Shown piece after piece: positions 4,068 to 53,790 of a stretch of DNA of 64,000 nt. The stretch is from a virus (Duplodnaviria; Caudoviricetes): the IMG/VR virus record IMGVR_UViG_2885593961_000002, positions 1 to 64,000 of that record; one strand, given 5' to 3'. Made by a program: the position numbers and the translations under genes. Below the pieces are notes generated by a model. It ran no database searches. It was not told the origin of the DNA and was given only the letters and a program-made list of their open reading frames with translations. Every line of letters begins with the position of its first letter. Position 1 is the stretch's first letter.

Positions 4068-4333
4068 CAGCGCGTCTCCTCTGCCCGCATCTCCTGCCAG
4101 CGGATCAAGGTGTCGATCGACTCCTGTATGTCCTTGGTGATGTCCTTCTGGCCACGACCACCGGCAACCAGCAGCTTCTTTACCGCGTGTTGAATGCACG
4201 GATCGACAACGTTGAACAGCTCAAGCACGCGGTACACATCGATACTCGGATACGGGCACGGCTTGTGATAGTGCGCGTGTTTCCGAGGCCCTTGCGGGCC
4301 TTGCGTAGCTGGCGCGGCAAGTTCGGCCATCAT
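4067..4333 (-). CDS. DUF3310-like phage protein
   Basis: HYHK...IDVYRVL...QHAVKKLL..GGRGQKD...DIQES pattern resembles this family; ATG overlaps thyX stop. Confidence 0.45.
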   Translation of the reverse strand: MMAELAAPATQGPQGPRKHAHYHKPCPYPSIDVYRVLELFNVVDPCIQHAVKKLLVAGGRGQKDITKDIQESIDTLIRWQEMRAEETR

Positions 4334-5247
4334 GCCTCGACCTCCCCGCGCTGCGCGACCAGAGCGCGATGCAATCGGACCTCGTCGTTGGTCCACTGCC
4401 GGCGCAGGACGGCAGGAACTTCACCGTCCATCGCGCGGGCCTTCTCGACGTCCTGGCGGTGCTGAAGCCAGCCGTCGAAGTTGCCGCCCTTCTGCGTCGA
4501 CGAGAAAGCCGGCGTCGCTTGGTGCTCGGTCGGAGATGCGTGGATCGGGCGCGCGCCGACCAGCTTAGCGTAGCGCTCGAACTCCTTCGCGTGGCTCGCG
4601 TCGCCGTCAAACGGGTCGTAGGAGATCCGTGCGCAGCGCGCGACGGACAGCTTGATCTGTTCTTCAATCGGCAGCGCCTCGCGCTCAGCCTGGAGGACGT
4701 ATGGCAAGTGCCACTCAGCGATGCGCAACCGGCGCGGCACGCTGACCTCGATCGCGGTCATGATCTCGACGGCCAAGATCTGCATCGTCGGATCGGCGTC
4801 CGGATGGCAGCGCAGTTCGTCGAAGTTGCCCCAGTCGGTCGAGGAAAGCAGGACGTTGATGTACTGGTACGGCTCGGTGACGCGGTTGGCGATTTGCTTG
4901 TGCGCGCCGAGCTTCATGAGCAGCCAGCTATGCAGCGCGGCGAAGCGGGCAGCGCTGCGCCATGTGGCCTTCGCGGCCCACAGACGCCAGCCTTGAAGCT
5001 CCGTTCCTGCCTGCATACCCGGCTGGTTGGTGCCCCACTCCGCGGGACACGCCGGCCGCGACCAGACTTGGCGCAACATGCGACGGATGGGGATAGCGCG
5101 GGAGCTGCCCGCGTTGCGCGAGAACTTGCGGTGCGTCATCAGCTCGCTATGGATGATGCGCGGATACCGCACTTCAACGGTCGTGAGGCGCACGCCGTTC
5201 GAGGCGATCGAATCTTCGATCACCTTGGCCAGAATGATAGGTTTCAT
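4330..5247 (-). CDS. thyX: FAD-dependent thymidylate synthase ThyX (phage type)
   Basis: THRKFSRNAGSSR fits the RHRx7S-type signature; SVARCARISY, HASPTEHQA. Confidence 0.85.
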   Translation of the reverse strand: MKPIILAKVIEDSIASNGVRLTTVEVRYPRIIHSELMTHRKFSRNAGSSRAIPIRRMLRQVWSRPACPAEWGTNQPGMQAGTELQGWRLWAAKATWRSAARFAALHSWLLMKLGAHKQIANRVTEPYQYINVLLSSTDWGNFDELRCHPDADPTMQILAVEIMTAIEVSVPRRLRIAEWHLPYVLQAEREALPIEEQIKLSVARCARISYDPFDGDASHAKEFERYAKLVGARPIHASPTEHQATPAFSSTQKGGNFDGWLQHRQDVEKARAMDGEVPAVLRRQWTNDEVRLHRALVAQRGEVEA

Positions 5248-5294
5248 CTTGTTTTCAGGGCCGGTGGTGGTCGGCCCTTCCTACGTGTGGTGGT

Positions 5295-9263: not shown

Positions 9264-9331
9264 GATTCACAACCTAGTGAAGTGGTGGTACAGCGCGCCG
9301 CAGCGCGCTGCTCTCTCGGTTGCGCTACCGC

Positions 9332-9934
9332 TTACGCTTCGACGACGTCGCCGGCTGCTGCGAGGCTGGGGTGCTTCGTGGAGTGGTCACGCACTGCGTA
9401 CAGGACCTTGAGCTGGTGGAGCACGTCGAACAGCGCGCTATGAGCGTCACCTTCGAACGGGATGTTTCGCTCGAACTCGGGCGGTTGCTGCGGCCAGTAG
9501 CGCCCGCGAATCCATGAATTCATGTCGTTCGTGTCGCGGTAGTGGAACGGGTTGCCGATCTCGAACTCCTTAAAATAACTTTCGAGGAACGGATATTCGA
9601 AGTGCGACGGCTTCGCCCACAATCTCAGCTTCTCGTTGTACGTGTCGACGTCGCGCAGCAGGAAATCGCGGAACGCCTGCATCACGACCTCCGGGCGCTC
9701 CATCCGCGCGTAAATGCCTTGCAGGATCTCGCGCTTGTCCTTGAGCCACCAGTTGCGGGTCTCTTCGTCGAAGAAGCGGCCATGCGGGATCATCAGGCAG
9801 CGGTTGAACATGTCGGGCATGATCTCGCCCGACGCGAAATCGAAGCGAACCGCTGCAATTTCGATGATTGCCGTGCGCTCAGGCTGAGTTCCGGTCGTTT
9901 CCAGGTCGACCATCACGTCGAGATACTTGGTCAT
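9332..9934 (-). CDS. DEDD 3'-5' exonuclease/exoribonuclease
   Basis: VMVDLETTG...HFEYPFL...HSALFD. Confidence 0.85.
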   Translation of the reverse strand: MTKYLDVMVDLETTGTQPERTAIIEIAAVRFDFASGEIMPDMFNRCLMIPHGRFFDEETRNWWLKDKREILQGIYARMERPEVVMQAFRDFLLRDVDTYNEKLRLWAKPSHFEYPFLESYFKEFEIGNPFHYRDTNDMNSWIRGRYWPQQPPEFERNIPFEGDAHSALFDVLHQLKVLYAVRDHSTKHPSLAAAGDVVEA

Positions 9935-15834: not shown

Positions 15835-16548
15835 TTACGCCGGCTCGGCTTCCGCTTCGATGCCCTGGTATTCCCAGGTCATGATGCCCCACGCGTTGTT
15901 GTTCTTGTTGGTCATCCGGAGGAAGCCAACCTTCACGTCCACGCGCTGGCCACCAGCGTTCGCTTCCATGACCTTCTGGTAGAAGTCCTGCCACGCACGC
16001 CAGTTCGTGGTCGACGTCGCGTAACCGACACGCTGACCAGCCTTCGCCAGCACTTCACCGTCCGCGGAGACGATGTCGGCCGTCAGGATCATCGGCACGT
16101 CAGCACTGCGGTACGCGCGGGCCTTCGCGTCGAGGGCGATGGCCTTGGCTTGCGCTTCGGACCAGGGGATGCCCTTGTCGCTCGTGACGCCGTCGTACGT
16201 CGACCAGTATTGCGCCGGGTTGCCGGCTTTGATCGACATCTTGACCATGAAGCCCGTGCCTTCCGTCATGTCGATAACCGCTTCGAACGACTGCACGAGC
16301 TTGGCGCTTGCGCCGACCTGGAGACCGAATTCCTTCGGCTTGATCCACAGATCGACGGCCATGCCCGCCGACATCAGTTGCTCCATCGAGAGCTTCTGGC
16401 CGGGAACTGCAACCGCACCGCCAGCCGCACCTACTGCTGCGACTGCCGTGCCGGTCGTCGGCGCGGCGGCTGCGCCGGCTGCTGCGTTTGCGATTGCGCC
16501 AGCTGCTGCGTCTTTGGCGCGCTGCATTGCTGCTTGGATCGGGTCCAT
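15835..16548 (-). CDS. Hypothetical protein, possible ssDNA-binding protein
   Basis: Between helicase and exonuclease, own promoter and terminator, acidic C-terminal tail (IEAEAEPA); function inferred from context only. Confidence 0.45.
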   Translation of the reverse strand: MDPIQAAMQRAKDAAAGAIANAAAGAAAAPTTGTAVAAVGAAGGAVAVPGQKLSMEQLMSAGMAVDLWIKPKEFGLQVGASAKLVQSFEAVIDMTEGTGFMVKMSIKAGNPAQYWSTYDGVTSDKGIPWSEAQAKAIALDAKARAYRSADVPMILTADIVSADGEVLAKAGQRVGYATSTTNWRAWQDFYQKVMEANAGGQRVDVKVGFLRMTNKNNNAWGIMTWEYQGIEAEAEPA

Positions 16549-16632
16549 ACGTTTCCTTCAAATGTTAGCTGTTTATGCGTCTGTTTCTGCTTCTGTTCTC
16601 TCGCCGTGGTGGTGGACACGTCGAGGAATATG

Positions 16633-20109: not shown

Positions 20110-20337
20110 TCAGACTTTCGTGTAGGGGAAACGAGTGGGATGCTTCTTGATGAGGCCGCTGAAGGCCGAGCCAAACGAATCGGCCGCGACCAGCTGGCCG
20201 ACGAGTTCTTTCGGGACGTTGCTGTACTGATACTCCTCACCGTTCTTGACGAAAACGATGTTGAGCTGCTGATTTTTTTCGTTATAGGCAAATGCGGAGA
20301 TCTGCGACGAGGTCACAGACGTGTAGCCAGATTTCAT
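20110..20337 (-). CDS. KTSC domain protein
   Basis: SSQISAFAYN...L.IVF..NG..YQYSNVP...LVAADSFGSAF...IK pattern. Confidence 0.85.
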   Translation of the reverse strand: MKSGYTSVTSSQISAFAYNEKNQQLNIVFVKNGEEYQYSNVPKELVGQLVAADSFGSAFSGLIKKHPTRFPYTKV

Positions 20338-20452
20338 GTTTCGATCTCTTATAGATTGAAGGTTGCTGTTCAGGTGGTGGTGGCACCCGCTCTACTACGA
20401 AGAGCCTTTACGGGACGCGTGGTGGTGACACGCTTACCGTGCGGCTTTACTA

Positions 20453-20922: not shown

Positions 20923-21188
20923 GCCGTCACCTTCGTGCGTCGGAGTTCATCACGCAGACGCTTCAGGCGTGCAATCTGCTGCTTGCTCAAGAGACCTGAG
21001 CTGATTGTGTTTTTGACTGCCGAGAACCACGTGTCGCGAGAAATCGGCGACTCGTTCCCTTGACTGTCGGCGACGTTGACGTTTGCGAATTTCCGGAGAG
21101 CTTCCCCGGTCTTGATCAGGGCGTCGACTGCTTTCGGTACATCGGCCAGTGGGTGCGGTCTTGCCTCAGTGGTGGTGGTGAGGTTCAT
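20919..21188 (-). CDS. Hypothetical protein
   Basis: Start re-placed at MNLTTTT (ATGA overlap). Confidence 0.6.
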   Translation of the reverse strand: MNLTTTTEARPHPLADVPKAVDALIKTGEALRKFANVNVADSQGNESPISRDTWFSAVKNTISSGLLSKQQIARLKRLRDELRRTKVTA

Positions 21189-21484: not shown

Positions 21485-21700
21485 CTATCGCATCTCGATC
21501 TTCGCGCCGTCCGGTATGTAGCCCACCGGCAGGACAAAGTAGCCCTTGATGACACGAAGCTTTTCCAGCGTCTTCATGGTCCGAACCCAAGCGTCAAGCA
21601 CACGCTCGTGGGTGAAATACTTCGGCTCCATGTGGTTATCCAGGTGGTGGACCTGGATCACCTGCGGCGGATTCAACAAGGTGCCCTTTTCCGATGTCAC
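21485..21700 (-). CDS. Hypothetical protein
   Basis: AAGGAGG SD before GTG. Confidence 0.55.
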   Translation of the reverse strand: MTSEKGTLLNPPQVIQVHHLDNHMEPKYFTHERVLDAWVRTMKTLEKLRVIKGYFVLPVGYIPDGAKIEMR

Positions 21701-22235
21701 GTAGAACCTCCTTTATCAGATCGGGTTGAAAATCGACCATGTACGGGTGATTCATCACGTCCGCAAGGGATCGTGGCTGCGTTACCGCGAGCATGGACTC
21801 CAGCAGCTCGACACATGCCTGCTTCAGTACCGCCATCGCATCGGGATTGCCGCCTTCACTTTCTGTAAGCGTCGGCGGCCCGTTGTCGATGAAGCGCCAA
21901 TGTGTGTAGTTGCAACAAAGCGTGTTGCCGCACTCGTTCACGAGCCTGTATCGGTCGGACTTAGAGACTTCCGGCGTCGCCCACTCGTAGACGATCTTGT
22001 GCACGACTTTCCGCTTCCCTTTACCAACCTTCACAAGCCCGTACGAGGTCACGACCGTGGGCTGGTAGAAAGGAACCATATCGCTTGTTCGAACCATCTT
22101 CAAGCGCGGACCAGCTTTTGTTTTCGCCCCCTTCCACGGCCAGCAGACGTCGAGCTGGCCGAAGTTGTCGATGCGGTCCTTGATACGTGCAACCAGCACC
22201 GCCAGATCGGCCTTACTATCGACGGCCTCAGTCAT
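21636..22235 (-). CDS. His-Me finger (HNH-like) protein, probably degenerate
   Basis: CWPWKG...YG...VHKIVY...CGNTLCCNYTH resembles phage HNH_3; the canonical DH of the HNH motif is not evident. Confidence 0.55.
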   Translation of the reverse strand: MTEAVDSKADLAVLVARIKDRIDNFGQLDVCWPWKGAKTKAGPRLKMVRTSDMVPFYQPTVVTSYGLVKVGKGKRKVVHKIVYEWATPEVSKSDRYRLVNECGNTLCCNYTHWRFIDNGPPTLTESEGGNPDAMAVLKQACVELLESMLAVTQPRSLADVMNHPYMVDFQPDLIKEVLRDIGKGHLVESAAGDPGPPPG

Positions 22236-23213: not shown

Positions 23214-23624
23214 TTACTGCGACTTCAGCAGCGTCGGTTGGAGCTTGTAGTGCTTCGAGAGGTACGTCAGGATCGCGTCGCCGTGCTCCGCGAGGTTGGC
23301 CAGCAGCTGCTCTTCGGTCGCTGCGACCGGCAGAGCGTAACCTTCGGTGATCACGGTGCCGTCCGCGCCCTTCACCGCCTCGATGTGAACCGGCTTCACG
23401 CCGTGCAGCATGAGGCCAGCGATCTTCTTCAGCGACGTGGTACGCTCGGCGACGAACGCTTCACGGGCCTTCTGCTGCTCCTGGAAACGGGCTTCGTCCG
23501 CGGCCGACCAGTTCGATGCAGCCTTCGGAGCGCCGCGCAGAGCGCGCGGGGACTTGCCGTCGTTGCCGCCCTTGTTCTTCTTCGGAGCAGCGGAGTTCTT
23601 GGTCGTGGTGGTGGTGGGTTCCAT
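23214..23624 (-). CDS. Hypothetical protein
   Basis: AAGGA SD; starts MEPTTTTT. Confidence 0.65.
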   Translation of the reverse strand: MEPTTTTTKNSAAPKKNKGGNDGKSPRALRGAPKAASNWSAADEARFQEQQKAREAFVAERTTSLKKIAGLMLHGVKPVHIEAVKGADGTVITEGYALPVAATEEQLLANLAEHGDAILTYLSKHYKLQPTLLKSQ

Positions 23625-23685: not shown

Positions 23686-24066
23686 TCAGGTACGGCCTCT
23701 CATCGACACGGGTAGCAATCCCGCAGCAATGAGATGGTTCAGGACGACAGCCGGCGTGGAGACCGGGAACGTCCTGACACATTCGCTGAGACCCAGTGCG
23801 ATGGCATCGATGGCCTTTTTACGCACGGTCGCAGCTTCAGCTTCGCTGGGTCGCGGGAGGTAAGGCACGAGCGCGCGGCAGATCTGCTCGGCCCGCTCAA
23901 TCAGCCCGTCCGTGATGTCGGTCTCGCTGATGTCGCGATAAGCAAACGTGCTCACGACGGCTTCGACAGACGCCCGCTGATGGGCCTCTACTTCTTCCTT
24001 GCGCGATGCCAGTTCGCGCAGCAGACGCTCGTCGTCGTCCGTCCAGGTTGTGGTGGTGGTGGTCAT
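23686..24066 (-). CDS. Hypothetical protein
   Basis: Starts MTTTTTT. Confidence 0.65.
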   Translation of the reverse strand: MTTTTTTWTDDDERLLRELASRKEEVEAHQRASVEAVVSTFAYRDISETDITDGLIERAEQICRALVPYLPRPSEAEAATVRKKAIDAIALGLSECVRTFPVSTPAVVLNHLIAAGLLPVSMRGRT

Positions 24067-27018: not shown

Positions 27019-27092
27019 CGTTGTGGTGGTGGATTGTTAGCGTTTCGGTGAACGAGGGTCGTGGCCAGACGCGCCTCGTTCAACTTGAACTT

Positions 27093-27621: not shown

Positions 27622-28299
27622 CTACCCCTGGTGAATCAATCCGTCGTCACCGATGTATAGCTCTCGGCTTCCCGCCTGACGTGCTGCGTCGGATAGCTGG
27701 TCACGCAAGTCGCGCGGTAGTTGGCGGCGATCCCAATAGCCAGCACCGTGGCCAGCTCGCGTGAGCCAGAAATCATGCCCCGCCTCGACCGCCTTGTAGC
27801 CGTTGCAATCAATTGCACGACGCAACTGCGGCTCGGCGAAGTCACAGAAATTCTTGCAGTCTTCGCGGAACTTCGTTTTCGCCTCTTCGTGCAGTTCGTA
27901 GCCATCGTCGAGATGCACCGTCTCCTCCTCCCCCTCTTCGTTCTTAATCGTGTCGATGCTCGACCACAGTGCGGCTTCTTCGTAGCCTGCCAAGAATTCT
28001 TCAAACCAGCGTTCGCGCGGTGTTTCGATGATTTCCGCGTTTGGATACAGCTCACGAACGTCTTCCAGTACCTCCCAGCGGTCTTTGCTGCGCAGGAAGA
28101 ATTCCACATCCCCATCGGGTTCGATAGCCCGCCACAGCGGCTCCCCCGCTCCCCAGTACGCCCCACCTTCGTCGTAGGCGCCGTCGACAAAGGGACAGTG
28201 GTGGACGACAAGTTTTATGGCAGCATCGTGGTCACCGTGGTGCGCGAGCCGGCCCATTGGAGCGCCGCGCGAGCCGTCCAGTTGCGACAGTGGTCTCAT
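27622..28299 (-). CDS. Hypothetical phage protein (GHDFWLTRAGHGAGYWDR motif)
   Basis: 225 aa. Confidence 0.7.
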   Translation of the reverse strand: MRPLSQLDGSRGAPMGRLAHHGDHDAAIKLVVHHCPFVDGAYDEGGAYWGAGEPLWRAIEPDGDVEFFLRSKDRWEVLEDVRELYPNAEIIETPRERWFEEFLAGYEEAALWSSIDTIKNEEGEEETVHLDDGYELHEEAKTKFREDCKNFCDFAEPQLRRAIDCNGYKAVEAGHDFWLTRAGHGAGYWDRRQLPRDLRDQLSDAARQAGSRELYIGDDGLIHQG

Positions 28300-33851: not shown

Positions 33852-34492
33852 GCCGGCACTCCCTCGCGCTCCTCTCGCACTCTGTCGTAGCTCGGGTCGC
33901 TGTACTTCGCGAAGAGATGCGGAAACGCTTCTTCGATCCGTCGACAGTTCGACATGTCAGCGTTGATCCATGCGTGGGCCAGTTTCCGAGCAAACTCGCC
34001 GGCGAAGTCGCGCATGTTGAATGCCATGCGCTGCCGCTCAGCGTAGGACCGCGACGAGATCGGATGCGGGCGTTGCTTCAGGCACATGCGACCGTGCTGT
34101 GCGTACATGGCAGCAAGACGCTGCTCGTGTGTCTCCTGCATGCCAGCAAAATGCTCGAGCATCGCCGTCAGGTGGAGAATCACGTCACGCTCGTTGAGCG
34201 ATTCAGCTCGATCAGTCACGGTGCGTTGATCCTCCAGCTCGTAATACCAAGCCTTGCGTAGATGCGGGCCGTCTTGATGGTTCTTGATCACCATGCCGCA
34301 CTGCTTGGCCATGTTGTCGATGAGCACGTCGAGCGGCAGGTTCACGTCGCGTTGTTCATCGTTCAGCTGCTCGAACACGCTTGCAGTAAGCACAATCTGC
34401 ATCGCTCGTTCGACGTATGGTGCGCGCTGGCCAGCGTCGCTCATCATCTCTTCGAAACTTTCAAACGGGCCGTAGGTGGTGGTGTTGCCCAT
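33848..34492 (-). CDS. Hypothetical protein
   Basis: AAGGATCAAACATC leader. Confidence 0.65.
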   Translation of the reverse strand: MGNTTTYGPFESFEEMMSDAGQRAPYVERAMQIVLTASVFEQLNDEQRDVNLPLDVLIDNMAKQCGMVIKNHQDGPHLRKAWYYELEDQRTVTDRAESLNERDVILHLTAMLEHFAGMQETHEQRLAAMYAQHGRMCLKQRPHPISSRSYAERQRMAFNMRDFAGEFARKLAHAWINADMSNCRRIEEAFPHLFAKYSDPSYDRVREEREGVPA

Positions 34493-35418: not shown

Positions 35419-35457
35419 GGTGGTGGGTTCTCTTCAGGGAATGCAGGCCGATCTCTG

Positions 35458-37514: not shown

Positions 37515-37719
37515 CGGAATTCTCCGGATAGTTCAACTTGCACTTTTCATCCAGTTTCCCGATCAAGCCGCCTACTGGGCGCTACTATGCCTGCCGCAGA
37601 GGCATGACCGGATTCATGGATGTGAAGGTGCCCTTGCGACCGGCGCGTAAGCGGTAGCGCCGGCCCCCTATAGGGCGAAGAAAAAGGAACGACTCACGCC
37701 ACCACGCGCGAGCCGTTCA

Positions 37720-43051: not shown

Positions 43052-44836
43052 ATGTCCAACCAGTATCTCCAACAGCTCTACGAACGCGCAGCGAACCGCT
43101 GGTCGAAAGACCGCGCGTCAATGACCTATGGCGACTGGATCTGCGAGAACACCACGCACAACGACAGAGCTTTCTCGTTCAAGCGTTATCCCTTCCAGAA
43201 GCAGATCGCGGACGACATGCACGACAACCTCGACTGCATTAAGCCGTCTCAGGTTGGCCTGACCGAAGTGCAGATCCGGAAGGTGCTCGCGTTCATTGCT
43301 CGCAACCGCGGTGTAAATGTCATCTACACGCTGCCCGACGAGGCCATGATGGAGCGGATCTCTGTCGGCCGCGTTCGCCCACTCGTCGACGAGGAGCACG
43401 CATTCAACCTCGAATCACTCGGCGGCAAGAAGCCGACGCGCACGAAGGAGATCATTCAAGTCGGCAAAAGCTTCCTCTACCTCACCGCTGCCGGCGAAGG
43501 TGCGGCGACGTCCATCTCCGCAGACATGGTCGTCAACGACGAAGTGGATTTGACTGATCAGTCGATGCTTGCCCTCTTCAACTCGCGACTTCAAGGCTCA
43601 GACTGGAAGCTGAATCACCGCTTTTCGACGCCAACCTTCCAGGACTACGGCATCGACCAGACGTTCAAGGTCAGCGACCAGCACGAGTACATGTTGAAGT
43701 GCGCCTGCTGCAACCACTGGCAGGTGCCCGACTTCGAGCGCCCGTTCGTACGAATCCCTGGCCTTCCCGACAGTCTGGATTTCGAGGAGATCGAAGAGGC
43801 GATGATCGACGCCGGCACGATCGACCTCGACGCCGTCTCCATCCACTGCGAGCATTGTGGCGCGCCGCTGAACCTTGGTGACCATGAGCGCCGCGCATGG
43901 GTGCCGAAGTACCCGCAGCGCAAGCATGCGCGCGGCTATCGCGTGCGCGCCTTCTCTACCGAACGCCTACCGCCGAAGTACATCCTGCGTCAGCTCTTCA
44001 TCTACAAGCGCAAGGACTTCATCCGCGGCTGGTACAACACCGTGCTCGGTCGCTCCCACACGGGGGGCGACCAGCGCCTGAATGACGCGGACATCAACGC
44101 GGCGTTCACCGAGTTTCAACTGGTCCGCCCGTCGAACAATGCGATGCCGGCGTGGCTTGGCATAGACATTGGTCAGACCTGCCACATCGTCGTCGGCGAA
44201 GGCTATGACGTGTCTTCGATTCATGTGGTCGAGTTCCTAACCGTTCCTGTCGGCCGCTTGCTTGAGGAGATCGCGCGCATCCTGACGACCTACCGCCTCG
44301 TTGCCGGTGGCTGTGACCGTCACCCGTACACGCCTACCGCTGAGGCAGTGCGCGACGCGTCCCATCGCCGCGTCCTGCCGAACGAGTACCGCGGCTCCAA
44401 GGAAATCAATCTCGTGAAGGACCCCGCCGGCGAGATCACACACATGCAATCCAACCGGACGCTCCTCCTCGACGAAGTGGCCCGAGCCATCCGGCTGCGC
44501 AAGATCAAGTTCTCCGGTTACGGGACGCACCGCTCGGCGATCGTTGAGCACCTGAAAGACATGGTTCGCAACGAAGAACCAGAGAAAGAAGCGGAATGGA
44601 AGAAGCTGAACGGTAACGATCACTTCTTCCATGCCTTGGGCTTCATGTTGTCTGCCGTGAAGCTACACACCACCAACGCATCCGCCCTCTTCAACACGGA
44701 AACGCGCAGTGTCATCCAGATCGTCGGCGCGACCGTGGGCATCAACGAGACCAGTCAACTCACGCTGGCCAATACCAAACACACCACTGGCAACTTGATC
44801 TATGGCAACGACCACCACCCGCAACTCTTCTTCTAA
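43052..44836 (+). CDS. Terminase large subunit, GpA-like
   Basis: KPSQVGLTE Walker A variant, DEVD, STPT, CxxC...CxxC, IDIG nuclease, NDHFFHA; start re-placed at MSNQY. Confidence 0.9.
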   Translation: MSNQYLQQLYERAANRWSKDRASMTYGDWICENTTHNDRAFSFKRYPFQKQIADDMHDNLDCIKPSQVGLTEVQIRKVLAFIARNRGVNVIYTLPDEAMMERISVGRVRPLVDEEHAFNLESLGGKKPTRTKEIIQVGKSFLYLTAAGEGAATSISADMVVNDEVDLTDQSMLALFNSRLQGSDWKLNHRFSTPTFQDYGIDQTFKVSDQHEYMLKCACCNHWQVPDFERPFVRIPGLPDSLDFEEIEEAMIDAGTIDLDAVSIHCEHCGAPLNLGDHERRAWVPKYPQRKHARGYRVRAFSTERLPPKYILRQLFIYKRKDFIRGWYNTVLGRSHTGGDQRLNDADINAAFTEFQLVRPSNNAMPAWLGIDIGQTCHIVVGEGYDVSSIHVVEFLTVPVGRLLEEIARILTTYRLVAGGCDRHPYTPTAEAVRDASHRRVLPNEYRGSKEINLVKDPAGEITHMQSNRTLLLDEVARAIRLRKIKFSGYGTHRSAIVEHLKDMVRNEEPEKEAEWKKLNGNDHFFHALGFMLSAVKLHTTNASALFNTETRSVIQIVGATVGINETSQLTLANTKHTTGNLIYGNDHHPQLFF

Positions 44837-46392: not shown

Positions 46393-46421
46393 TTGACTCT
46401 CATTTAGCTGGTCGAAATAAT
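46393..46421 (+). promoter_or_regulatory. Sigma70-like promoter TTGACT-17-AATAAT
   Basis: Intergenic, upstream of the head genes. Confidence 0.55.
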
Positions 46422-47619: not shown

Positions 47620-48042
47620 ATGAGCAACGCTATCGGTAACGGCGTCTCCCTTCGTGGTCTCTACGATGAGGATTCGCAGTATCCGTTCAACCTGGCCGCG
47701 GGCATCAAGAAAGGTCAGGACGAAGGCAAGGCAGTGTCGATCGACCCGACCGCGCCCAATACGGTGAAGCTGGCCGGCGACGGTGATCTGCTCGCCGGCC
47801 GACTCGAAACGATCGAAAACCGCGTGACCGAAGGCCTGAACGTCGGCACCGTCTCGCTGGAAGGTGGCCTCGACTTCCTGGTCAAAGCGGGCTACGCCGC
47901 GACGCCGGGTGACCGCCTCGTCGGCGGTGGCGGCGGCACGGTTCGCAAGGCCGACCCTGCGAAGGACGCATTCGGTGGTTACTCGCCGTGGTGCGTCGTC
48001 GAAGTGCTGGCCAGCGGCAACGTGGTCGCGATCGAGCTGTAA
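47620..48042 (+). CDS. Capsid decoration/cement protein
   Basis: 140 aa Gly-rich, between protease and MCP. Confidence 0.65.
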   Translation: MSNAIGNGVSLRGLYDEDSQYPFNLAAGIKKGQDEGKAVSIDPTAPNTVKLAGDGDLLAGRLETIENRVTEGLNVGTVSLEGGLDFLVKAGYAATPGDRLVGGGGGTVRKADPAKDAFGGYSPWCVVEVLASGNVVAIEL

Positions 48043-48167
48043 AGAATGGCGGCAGATGACCTCGCCCACCACCGGGTTCATCTGCTGGAAGAGCTGCAAA
48101 ACCCTCGTCAATTCCGACCACCACCGGGCTGACGAAGGTTCAAAAACAACTGACAACGGATCAAAAC

Positions 48168-49361
48168 ATGGCAGATCTGATCGACATCGAACGCCGCGCA
48201 CCTGCGGAAGTTCTCGCCGGCCTCAAACCGGACGACACCACCGACGTCCAGCGCTCGATCAACGCTGGCCAGCGCCTCGTGCGCCTCGCCGCAGACTCGG
48301 GCCTCAACCTGCGTGACTATCTCACGCTCGCGATCGACCCGCGCCGTGCCGACGACGCAGGCCGCTACGATGGCCTGAACGGCTACGAAGCTGCGCTCGC
48401 CTACCTCAACCTGCCCGTCCGCCAGGATCTCTCGCAAGGCGTCCTGCTGCAAGCTGCATCGGAAACGTTCCAGACGTATCCGGGCACCCGCGCGATGTTC
48501 CCGGAAGTCATGGACGACATCCTGCGCTGGAAGAACCGCCAGGACCAGATCGAACAGGTCGCTCCGCTCGTCGCGCAGTCGCGCACGATCAACGGCACCG
48601 AGATGATCTCGACGTTCGTCGAAGACGACTCGAACGAGCGCACGACGCATACGATCCCGGAACTGGGCCGCATCCCGGTTCGCACGATCCGCACGTCGCA
48701 GCAGACGGTCGGCATCTTCAAGCACGGCTCGGGCTATCGTACCTCGTACGAATTCAACCGCCGTGCTTCGCTCGACATCATGACGCCGTTTGCAGCGCGC
48801 GTCGGCCGCGAGCTGGAGATCTCGAAGGTGCGCGCCGCGACGGCCATCCTGATCAACGGCGACGGCGTCAATGGTGCAGCTGGCGTGGTCAAGGTATCGG
48901 ACTTCGGCGGCGATGCCACCAAGGCATTCTCGTCGAACTACAAGGCGCTCGCGAAGTGGCTCATGGCCCGCGCGAAGGCTGGCTACCCGATCGACACGAT
49001 TATCGGCAACTACGACATGTTCGTAGAGCTGCTGTTCATGTTCCAGCCGGTGACGGGCATCTCGGGCGCGCATGCGACCGATATCGAAGCGCTGGTTGCG
49101 CAAGGTACGCCGAAGATCAACACCCAGGTCCCGATCCTCAACCAGTCGGTGAACTTCCACCTGTCGTCGGCGGTGCCGGAAGGAAAGCTGGTCGGCTTCA
49201 CGAAGGCTGAAACGCTGGAAGAGCTGATCGAAGCCGGCTCGAACATCTCGGAAAACGAGCGTTCGATCCTGAACCAGTCGATCACCTACGTGCGTACGGA
49301 AAACACCGGCTACAAGCTGGCGTTCCCGGACACGCGCCAAGTCCTCGACGTGACCGCGTAA
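48168..49361 (+). CDS. Major capsid protein
   Basis: 397 aa; position; followed by a strong terminator. Confidence 0.85.
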   Translation: MADLIDIERRAPAEVLAGLKPDDTTDVQRSINAGQRLVRLAADSGLNLRDYLTLAIDPRRADDAGRYDGLNGYEAALAYLNLPVRQDLSQGVLLQAASETFQTYPGTRAMFPEVMDDILRWKNRQDQIEQVAPLVAQSRTINGTEMISTFVEDDSNERTTHTIPELGRIPVRTIRTSQQTVGIFKHGSGYRTSYEFNRRASLDIMTPFAARVGRELEISKVRAATAILINGDGVNGAAGVVKVSDFGGDATKAFSSNYKALAKWLMARAKAGYPIDTIIGNYDMFVELLFMFQPVTGISGAHATDIEALVAQGTPKINTQVPILNQSVNFHLSSAVPEGKLVGFTKAETLEELIEAGSNISENERSILNQSITYVRTENTGYKLAFPDTRQVLDVTA

Positions 49362-49380: not shown

Positions 49381-49410
49381 AAAGCCCGCCCCTCTCGGGC
49401 GGGCTTTTTT
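49381..49410 (+). terminator. Intrinsic terminator
   Basis: AAAGCCCGCCC-ctctc-GGGCGGGCTTTTTT. Confidence 0.88.
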
Positions 49411-53388: not shown

Positions 53389-53790
53389 ATGTCGACCACC
53401 ACCACGCGACAAGCCCCGCCCGCAAAACTCGAAATCACCCTGGCCGGCGCGAAGAAGATCTTGTTCATGTCCTTTGGCTTGCTCAATGAACTGTGCCGAG
53501 GTATTGGAGATGCTCAAGGCGCGTTGCAAGTCACCGCGAACTCTCAACTTCGCGATTTTGTACTGATGGTTGTGCTTTCCGATCGAGACGAAGAAGGTAA
53601 CGTCGTCAAGCCGATCAACGTCAATCGCATCGAGATGTCCATCGAAGACGGTGAACGCCTGCTCGACTGGGTATCGCAGCACGCGACAGATTTTTTCGTC
53701 CGGACGATGGAGAGAATCGTCACGGGGCACAAGGACAAGGAAAGCCGGTTGAAGGCCCTGAAAGAGCTGGCCGAAAACCCGGCAAGCTAA
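53389..53790 (+). CDS. Tail assembly chaperone (gpG-like)
   Basis: Between MTP and TMP; slippery A-AAC-CCG near the 3' end. Confidence 0.75.
   Translation: MSTTTTRQAPPAKLEITLAGAKKILFMSFGLLNELCRGIGDAQGALQVTANSQLRDFVLMVVLSDRDEEGNVVKPINVNRIEMSIEDGERLLDWVSQHATDFFVRTMERIVTGHKDKESRLKALKELAENPAS

Follow-up and report, generated by a model that had tools for sequence, protein, structure and literature searches.

A start-associated CCACCAC motif, partly displayed in the loops of covarying hairpins, as a candidate translation-initiation element in a clade of JWF-like siphophages

The 64,000-nt stretch of DNA analysed here (the window) comprises most of a 78.4-kb siphophage genome. Its nearest named relative is Achromobacter phage JWF, with approximately 73% nucleotide identity over the head genes; phage 2-1 is also related, and Caulobacter phage Seuss and Xylophilus phage Lumi are more distant. 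Judging from sequence, the host is probably Burkholderia, since a relative with 95% capsid identity is found in a contig of Burkholderia paludis MSh1. The direction of transcription splits at approximately 42.8 kb, with leftward genes on one side and rightward genes on the other. The rightward genes include those for the large terminase, the portal, a phrog_37797 protein, a 140-aa protein, the major head protein, and a 1952-aa tape measure. On the opposite strand, 9332-9934 (-) encodes a 200-aa protein with an Rv2179c-like 3′-5′ exoribonuclease domain (PF16473, E 7e-25), which the JWF annotation names merely as an exonuclease.

The major head (capsid) protein (phrog_3922) is encoded at 48168-49361 (+), and the gene for the 140-aa protein precedes it at 47620-48042, which leaves a gap of 125 nt. 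This capsid leader contains two hairpins that an earlier note on this DNA had described, and their sequence is exactly as quoted there. The distal hairpin (48051-48086, +) presents the loop CCCACCAC at 48065-48072, ending 95 nt before the ATG, and the proximal hairpin (48101-48139, +) presents the loop ACCACCAC at 48117-48124, ending 43 nt before the ATG. Both are more stable than shuffled controls, a check that the earlier note had proposed: the distal hairpin reaches -21.1 kcal/mol (z -3.7; 1 of 200 shuffles as good) and the proximal one -16.4 kcal/mol (z -3.4; 0 of 200), and the entire leader folds with a z of -2.3. For the distal hairpin, ViennaRNA favours a 6-nt loop because of a G to U change in this genome; the relatives back the 8-nt loop.

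A promoter-like, sigma-70-like sequence (TTGACT-17-AATAAT) is located at 46393-46421 (+), and a GC hairpin with a T6 terminator at 49384-49400 (+) closes a three-gene unit whose last gene is that of the capsid. These two elements flank the unit, and the capsid-leader hairpins are therefore intercistronic and not themselves terminators. An intrinsic terminator has a GC-rich stem, a short loop, and a U-tract. A scan of the plus strand across 48051-48139 found no U-tract terminator, the tails being GGUUCAAAA and similar, and this identity was ruled out for the capsid hairpins because no U-tract follows the stems. RNase III site, Chi site, and G-quadruplex were, like terminator, each dismissed on anatomy.

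The start region of the capsid gene (48155-48170, +) reads CGGATCAAAAC-ATG, with a weak Shine-Dalgarno (SD) sequence (GGA) and an A-rich spacer, and its duplex with the 16S tail is predicted at -4.9 kcal/mol. This cassette recurs at other motif-bearing genes, and both GGATCAA and CAAAACA are over-represented upstream of starts. The form GGATC(A/G)AAAC-ATG is common to many such genes (48155-48167, the 33640s, the 14970s, and in relatives). GGAUCA is also the sequence found in the 16S 3′ tail directly 5′ of the anti-SD.

The capsid loci of relatives with 79–100% capsid identity were taken from IMG/VR, and all of these except L010 have leader hairpins in matching places. The orthologous hairpins of L005-L009 and L011-L016 have unlike stems and an identical loop. 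The stems are fully rewritten by compensatory changes (for example GGCAGAUGACCUCG, GCCGGCCCUG, CGUCAGCUCUG, and CGGUCGGCUCCG), and the loop is invariably NCCACCAC, closed by a G-C pair. The end of the proximal loop is 41–45 nt from the ATG in 12 of 12 orthologues, and one relative, L029, has a single hairpin with one unstructured copy of the motif. In the main alignment, orthologous capsid leaders were anchored by position, with no selection for pairing; 79% of cells pair, compared to 64% when shuffled and 32–58% when slid. The covariation score in this alignment is 0.50 versus 0.25, a value reached by none of 500 shuffles, and double-sided changes occur in 10 of the 12 pairs. When 33 hairpins of six genomes were aligned separately, the picture was similar; only the outer pairs count as independent there because the inner pairs were used for selection. 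The earlier note had described a conserved loop on unrelated stems and had proposed looking for covariation and loop conservation in related phages; the description is confirmed, with stems that covary around a fixed NCCACCAC loop.

The JWF capsid leader is a plain 46-nt spacer, and other orthologous intergenic sites in JWF carry ordinary U-tract terminators that meet the definition given above. The early region of JWF also contains approximately 10 copies of a 15-bp palindrome, GGTTCGT-A-ACGAACC, just 5′ of ribosome-binding sites (for example at record positions 69001, 71207, 75026, 77584, and 78606; L001/L002). These palindromes look like operators and are unrelated to the loop motif CCACCAC.

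Four further hairpins reported in the earlier note, at 5257-5278, 16600-16625, 20371-20389, and 20411-20439, are present in the window, with the minus strand as the sense strand and z values of -0.9 to -3.2. The first, AGGGCCG[ACCACCAC]CGGCCCT (5257-5278, -; z -3.2), has its loop end 17 nt before the ATG of a ThyX-like gene (4330-5247); a second, unstructured CCACCAC lies at 5287-5293 (-), immediately 3′ of a MazG stop codon. Orthologues of the ThyX-like gene in G001, G003, G004, and G005 have hairpins with covarying stems 14–18 nt from the start. The hairpin CTCGaCGTG[TCCACCAC]CACGgCGAG (16600-16625, -) is in the leader of gene 15835-16548, approximately 60 nt before its ATG. The upstream motif of this gene is kept in G001-G004, and its hairpin is 58–62 nt from the start in this genome, G001, G003, and G004. 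The remaining two (20411-20439 and 20371-20389, -), with CCACCAC/UCACCAC loops, are upstream of gene 20110-20337, whose KTSC domain was confirmed and whose distal motif is kept in 4 of 5 relatives. In addition, ATCCAG[GUCCACCAC]CUGGAU (21636-21664, -; z -2.0) overlaps the stop codon of gene 21636-22235, and GGCACUC[ACCACCACCACA]GAGU.., ahead of a gene at 70383, is conserved in all relatives. The idea that such hairpins are used in pairs does not hold generally, as only the capsid and KTSC leaders have two, and L029 has one with an unstructured copy. Within one mismatch, CCACCACCGGG was seen 6 times versus 1.05 expected. Exact 8-nt NCCACCAC loops are found in 36 hairpins of the six related genomes, which corresponds to 10% of motif copies, compared to 0–5% for control heptamers.

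The heptamer CCACCAC occurs in 15 copies on the plus strand and 39 on the minus strand of the window, nearly all of them sense to the local genes. Among the 7-mers that are over-represented in the 50 nt before starts, it has the most copies, with 22 observed versus 1.2 expected from gene bodies. The six related genomes are this one and the whole relatives G001-G005, and JWF and 2-1 were compared alongside. Between -60 and +24 of starts, the sense/antisense counts are 33/0 in this genome, 21/4 in G001, 18/7 in G002, 29/0 in G003, 22/1 in G004, and 16/0 in G005, compared to 1/0 in JWF and 0/3 in 2-1. Inheritance from the JWF lineage was rejected on the single sense copy of JWF and the lack of any in 2-1. 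Pooled over the six genomes, 139 of the 151 start-region copies are sense and 12 antisense (p 1e-28), and the density is 2.57 per kb around starts versus 0.21 per kb in gene bodies, a 12-fold difference. The signal is post-transcriptional and phage-wide, as the earlier note had proposed, because the conserved loop invariably lies on the strand that is transcribed as sense and is found at sites throughout the genome.

Approximately 90% of CCACCAC copies have no hairpin and lie between -25 and +14 of start codons, and the hairpin is therefore not the unit of the signal. Rather, the hairpins are its less common, structured form: the signal itself is a phage-wide, single-stranded CCACCAC found beside the starts of about 20–30 genes with weak ribosome-binding sites. 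With gene starts from a purpose-made simple caller scored on GC3 and SD, which could bias both distances and SD energies, the distance from motif to ATG peaks at 12–16 nt, with a second group at 0–2 nt and the hairpin class at approximately 40–100 nt. Unstructured sense copies 0–25 nt upstream of starts are spread over 9282-42329 (-) and begin at 9282, 10371, 11735, 14981, 27023, 27339, 31030, 33663, 35420, 36009, and 42320; the one at 35420, for instance, reads CCACCACcATG, and the one at 27023 reads CCACCACcacaacgATG. A fourth class is located inside genes, in codons 2–5, and reads Thr-Thr(-Thr). Its members are at 21169-21178, 23605-23617, 24050-24062, and 34476-34482 (-), and at 44812-44818 (in the portal gene) and 53396-53405 (+). 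Across the six genomes, 21 of the 22 intragenic copies are in the ACC frame, and 17 begin precisely 4 or 7 nt past the A of the ATG. No frame bias is seen among the copies that lie upstream (19/22/14), which are therefore not hidden coding sequence. The 12–16 nt peak, the 0–2 nt group, and the coding copies 4 or 7 nt after the A match the footprint of the 30S subunit.

The association of the motif with particular genes is conserved. Its presence and its class (proximal or distal) are kept gene by gene across the relatives (Fisher p 1e-5), being proximal at the ThyX-like gene, the primase gene, and the gene at 70383, and distal at the capsid gene, the KTSC gene, and gene 15835. Early and late genes both carry the motif, which is therefore not a temporal-class switch. 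Several copies are 9–20 nt 3′ of TATAAT or TAAAAT boxes, at predicted transcript 5′ ends, among them the hairpin ahead of the gene at 70383. G002 (loci L039-L043), which otherwise has few hairpin-borne copies, contains a (CCA)14 run 16 nt before an ATG (reverse-strand offset approximately 13323, or approximately 69.5 kb on the forward strand; L042), and this run suggests that the motif can expand by slippage.

Genes with the motif also differ from other genes in their initiation signals. Predicted pairing with the 16S tail, computed on the start choices of the same GC3- and SD-scored caller, is weaker in motif genes (-3.85 versus -6.21 kcal/mol, p 6e-12). Where the motif is outside the SD window, the SD is still weaker, at -5.1 (p 0.006) for upstream copies and -5.4 (p 0.08) for downstream copies, and is typically the cassette GGAUC(A/G)AAAC-AUG. 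All 196 overlapping or coupled genes lack the motif, which 38% of genes with spacers of 31–150 nt carry. Moreover, the start-linked motif is predicted to be unpaired, with a mean P(unpaired) of 0.85; shuffling the flanks lowers this to 0.68 (p 9e-11), and copies in gene bodies have 0.67 (p 1e-6).

Because of this position spectrum, the association with weak SD sequences, and the absence from coupled genes, the evidence points to translation initiation over antitermination, which had been one option of the earlier note. The preferred reading, to which a probability of roughly 0.5 is given, takes CCACCAC, or (CCA)n in general, to be a cis-acting element that the host ribosome reads at translation initiation in this clade of JWF-like siphophages. 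From the patterns above we infer both an effect on ribosome loading and a ribosomal or accessory component that reads the motif. As single-stranded RNA within or beside the 30S footprint, (CCA)n would substitute for or reinforce a weak SD and would aid de novo ribosome loading on genes that have no translational coupling. In short leaders the motif would act in the open, 0–25 nt before the ATG or in codons 2–5. In long leaders (capsid, KTSC, and gene 15835) the hairpin would hold the motif open in its 8-nt loop, where it would serve for standby or recruitment, and the stem may also stabilise the mRNA.

Several findings fit less well with a ribosome-read element. A Burkholderia 16S rRNA (L059) contains neither GUGGUGG nor GUGGUG, only UGGUGG at 89 and 249, which is about chance level; pairing with 16S rRNA was dropped as the means of reading because no 7-nt complement exists in L059. 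The 16S search of the B. paludis draft found no rRNA. A general host start signal was ruled out by the split of 5 sense and 5 antisense copies near starts in 301 genes of a 400-kb piece of Burkholderia chromosome. A general habit of Burkholderia phages was rejected on KS14 and BcepNazgul, which show at most a marginal CCACC excess (n = 3–4). This lack of motif use in host genes and in two unrelated Burkholderia phages would be odd if the host ribosome were the sole reader. In addition, the loops, which end 43–95 nt from the ATG and have a fixed sequence and closing pair, resemble a specific binding site more than a generic enhancer. Finally, C-rich sites of this kind performed poorly in vivo in E. 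coli (PMC3310771).

A second explanation, possible but rather doubtful, sees in the motif an operator for a dedicated trans-acting reader that co-regulates a fixed regulon of about 20–30 phage genes, perhaps in the manner of T4 RegA, CsrA, or GcvB. The reader would bind (CCA)n in loops and leaders, and could be a phage protein of no known family, possibly the KTSC protein, or a small RNA with GUGGUGG. Such a reader would account for the exactness of the heptamer, the invariant loop and closing G-C pair on covarying stems, the fixed distances of the distal loops from the ATG, the gene-specific conservation, and the restriction of the motif to this clade, which neither the host nor other Burkholderia phages share. 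Against it, searches of the phage for CsrA, S1, and cold-shock domains found none, and the CsrA control search worked; the searches with PF03861 (ANTAR) and PF11438, which we take to be the lambda N family, carry no weight either way, since their controls were silent too. A tRNA search of the phage found none. Only one gene is shared by all five relatives with the motif yet missing from both JWF and 2-1. Located at 27622-28299 (-), it encodes an acidic 225-aa protein (phrog_1915) containing GHDFWLTRAGHGAGYWD, which was set aside as reader because it does not look like an RNA binder. The KTSC gene has two such hairpins in its own leader, but KTSC is also present in the motif-less JWF and 2-1, and the literature yielded no evidence of RNA binding by KTSC, so that this protein too was rejected.

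In favour of a trans-acting reader, a terminator-like hairpin between two leftward ORFs, at 37679-37717 (-), has a 13-bp stem, GAACGGCUCGCGC[GUGGUG]GCGUGAGUCGUUC, followed by CUUUUUCUUCG, and its loop is the exact complement of CACCAC. The orthologous terminators of G001 and G003 lack this loop, and an antisense RNA from this terminator was rejected on that ground. The occurrence of the motif on early and late genes alike also speaks against a dedicated reader acting as a temporal-class switch. A related formulation, held only tentatively, is a private post-transcriptional code in which a phage-encoded or hijacked factor reads (CCA)n in 8-nt loops or open leaders and sets the translation of about 20–30 conserved genes, including those for the capsid, primase, tail fibre, and KTSC protein. 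If this were true, it would amount to ribosome recruitment or repression separate from the host Shine-Dalgarno system, and to a previously undescribed regulon.

It is unlikely that the hairpins are elements of mRNA processing or stability, whether as barriers to an exonuclease or RNase E or as sites at which cleavage would release a stable capsid mRNA, with the G- and U-free motif as mere RNase-E-resistant, non-pairing filler. The capsid hairpins do separate cistrons within a single unit bounded by the promoter at 46393 and the terminator at 49384; several copies are at the predicted 5′ ends noted above; and JWF has hairpins, which are classic terminators, at orthologous intergenic sites. However, stability hairpins do not need an invariant 8-nt loop, stems of 6–14 bp are too short for RNase III, and the hairpins, having no U-tract, are not intrinsic terminators. 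Processing also leaves unexplained the roughly 90% of copies that have no stem, the copies in codons 2–5, the 12–16 nt spacing, and the link to weak SD sequences. Least probable is a signal read on DNA, such as a single-strand hairpin (non-template or lagging-template) that serves a P4-type primase, a Chi-like GTGGTGG, or a piece of a phage promoter. In its favour, the motif switches strand where transcription, and probably replication, changes direction, and some copies are at a fixed 9–10 nt after -10-like boxes. Against it, the clustering at -25 to +14 of starts, the Thr-frame copies, and the SD relationship have no rationale on DNA, there is no enrichment in gene bodies, a promoter-like box is lacking near most copies, and approximately 31 copies on both strands of the 400-kb host sample are far too few for Chi.

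Start-associated motifs have been known in phages since 2011 and are still unexplained. CCACCAC is an unusually clean case, as it combines an exact, G-free heptamer with rules of strand and position, a link to weak SD sequences, and display in hairpins whose stems covary. Read as a translation-initiation element, it may represent the first equivalent in nature, and in vivo, of CCACC-type sites, which until now only selection in vitro has revealed; on the other reading, its copies could be the operators of a new RNA-binding regulator. Both readings are open to direct test by reporter fusions in Burkholderia, and the motif bears on start-codon annotation and on the design of expression signals in these phages.

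The earlier note did not recognise the system as one already described. An Rfam search had no match even at E<=1, and a literature search on CCACCAC with phage and stem-loop found nothing relevant. It had drawn analogies with boxB, ANTAR, and CsrA, which share with the capsid hairpins a conserved loop on variable stems in mRNA leaders, sometimes in tandem. These analogies break down over loop sequence and over the requirement for a stem; nor did the phage yield a cognate protein, the CsrA search being negative and the ANTAR and N searches uninformative because their controls were silent. An ANTAR target RNA consists of tandem hexaloop hairpins (conserved A1 and G4), the second of which overlaps a terminator, together with an ANTAR protein; here the loops are 8-nt NCCACCAC and no terminator follows the proximal hairpin, so that there is nothing to antiterminate. 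A lambda nut site has a 5-bp stem, a GNRA-like pentaloop, an upstream boxA, and the N protein, with few sites per genome, whereas here the loops are C-rich and 8 nt long, and at least 9 hairpins accompany dozens of unstructured copies. CsrA/RsmA sites have GGA in a hairpin loop or overlapping the SD, together with CsrA protein, and here the loop contains no G and the phage has no CsrA.

The closest parallel in distribution is provided by the start-associated sequences (SAS) and their extended form (ESAS) in Cluster K mycobacteriophages, which were reported in 2011 (PMC3203893) and surveyed in 2025 (PMC12699233). SAS are defined by a 13-nt consensus, GGGATAGGAGCCC, with 2 mismatches or fewer, located 3–8 nt upstream of start codons (PMC12699233). 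About half of SAS genes have an adjoining inverted repeat, the ESAS; the SAS includes the SD, conservation extends to the arms of the ESAS, and little support for an RNA hairpin was seen by the authors (PMC3203893; PMC12699233). Like CCACCAC, the SAS is a short phage-specific motif in nearly one orientation, just 5′ of the starts of a subset of genes, with a gene-by-gene association conserved across related genomes and a function that is still open. CCACCAC or (CCA)n does not match the SAS consensus; it shares the single orientation (139 versus 12), the link to starts, and the conservation in orthologues (Fisher p 1e-5), which makes for a functional likeness and not membership. Unlike the SAS, CCACCAC is G-free, is accompanied by a weak or absent SD, and lies 0–25 nt upstream or in codons 2–5. 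In contrast to the ESAS arms, the stems here are free and covarying, and it is the loop that is conserved. The two also come from different host phyla and phage lineages.

In sequence, the nearest match is to the C-rich non-SD ribosome-binding sites obtained by ribosome display for fast translation in a reconstituted E. coli system, in which CCACC was the top pentamer (Barendt et al. 2012, PMC3310771). These sites showed little position dependence, AC repeats enhanced SD function, and C-rich 5′ UTRs in Burkholderia phages were remarked upon (PMC3310771). The selected sites were weak in E. coli cells, and they were explained by broad 16S complementarity (PMC3310771). CCACCAC is of the same CCACC class. 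Such a site is C-rich, lies within approximately 18 nt upstream of the AUG, and drives initiation with no SD; CCACCAC fits it in sequence and position and has a weak SD at its genes, and it would be a candidate for the same activity. However, no 7-nt 16S complement was found here, and display in a loop was not described for the selected sites.

A further comparison is with C/A-rich ACA elements upstream of the SD, which are proven enhancers in enterobacteria and are targeted by the small RNA GcvB (Yang et al. 2014, PMC3879156). Like CCACCAC, these are single-stranded C/A-rich modules 5′ of the SD with flexible spacing, and the ACA elements raise translation. They differ in that their core is ACA and not CCACCAC, they belong to host genes, and a conserved GU-rich partner RNA was not found here. 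By analogy, the GcvB case suggests that one GU-rich RNA could silence many such sites together.
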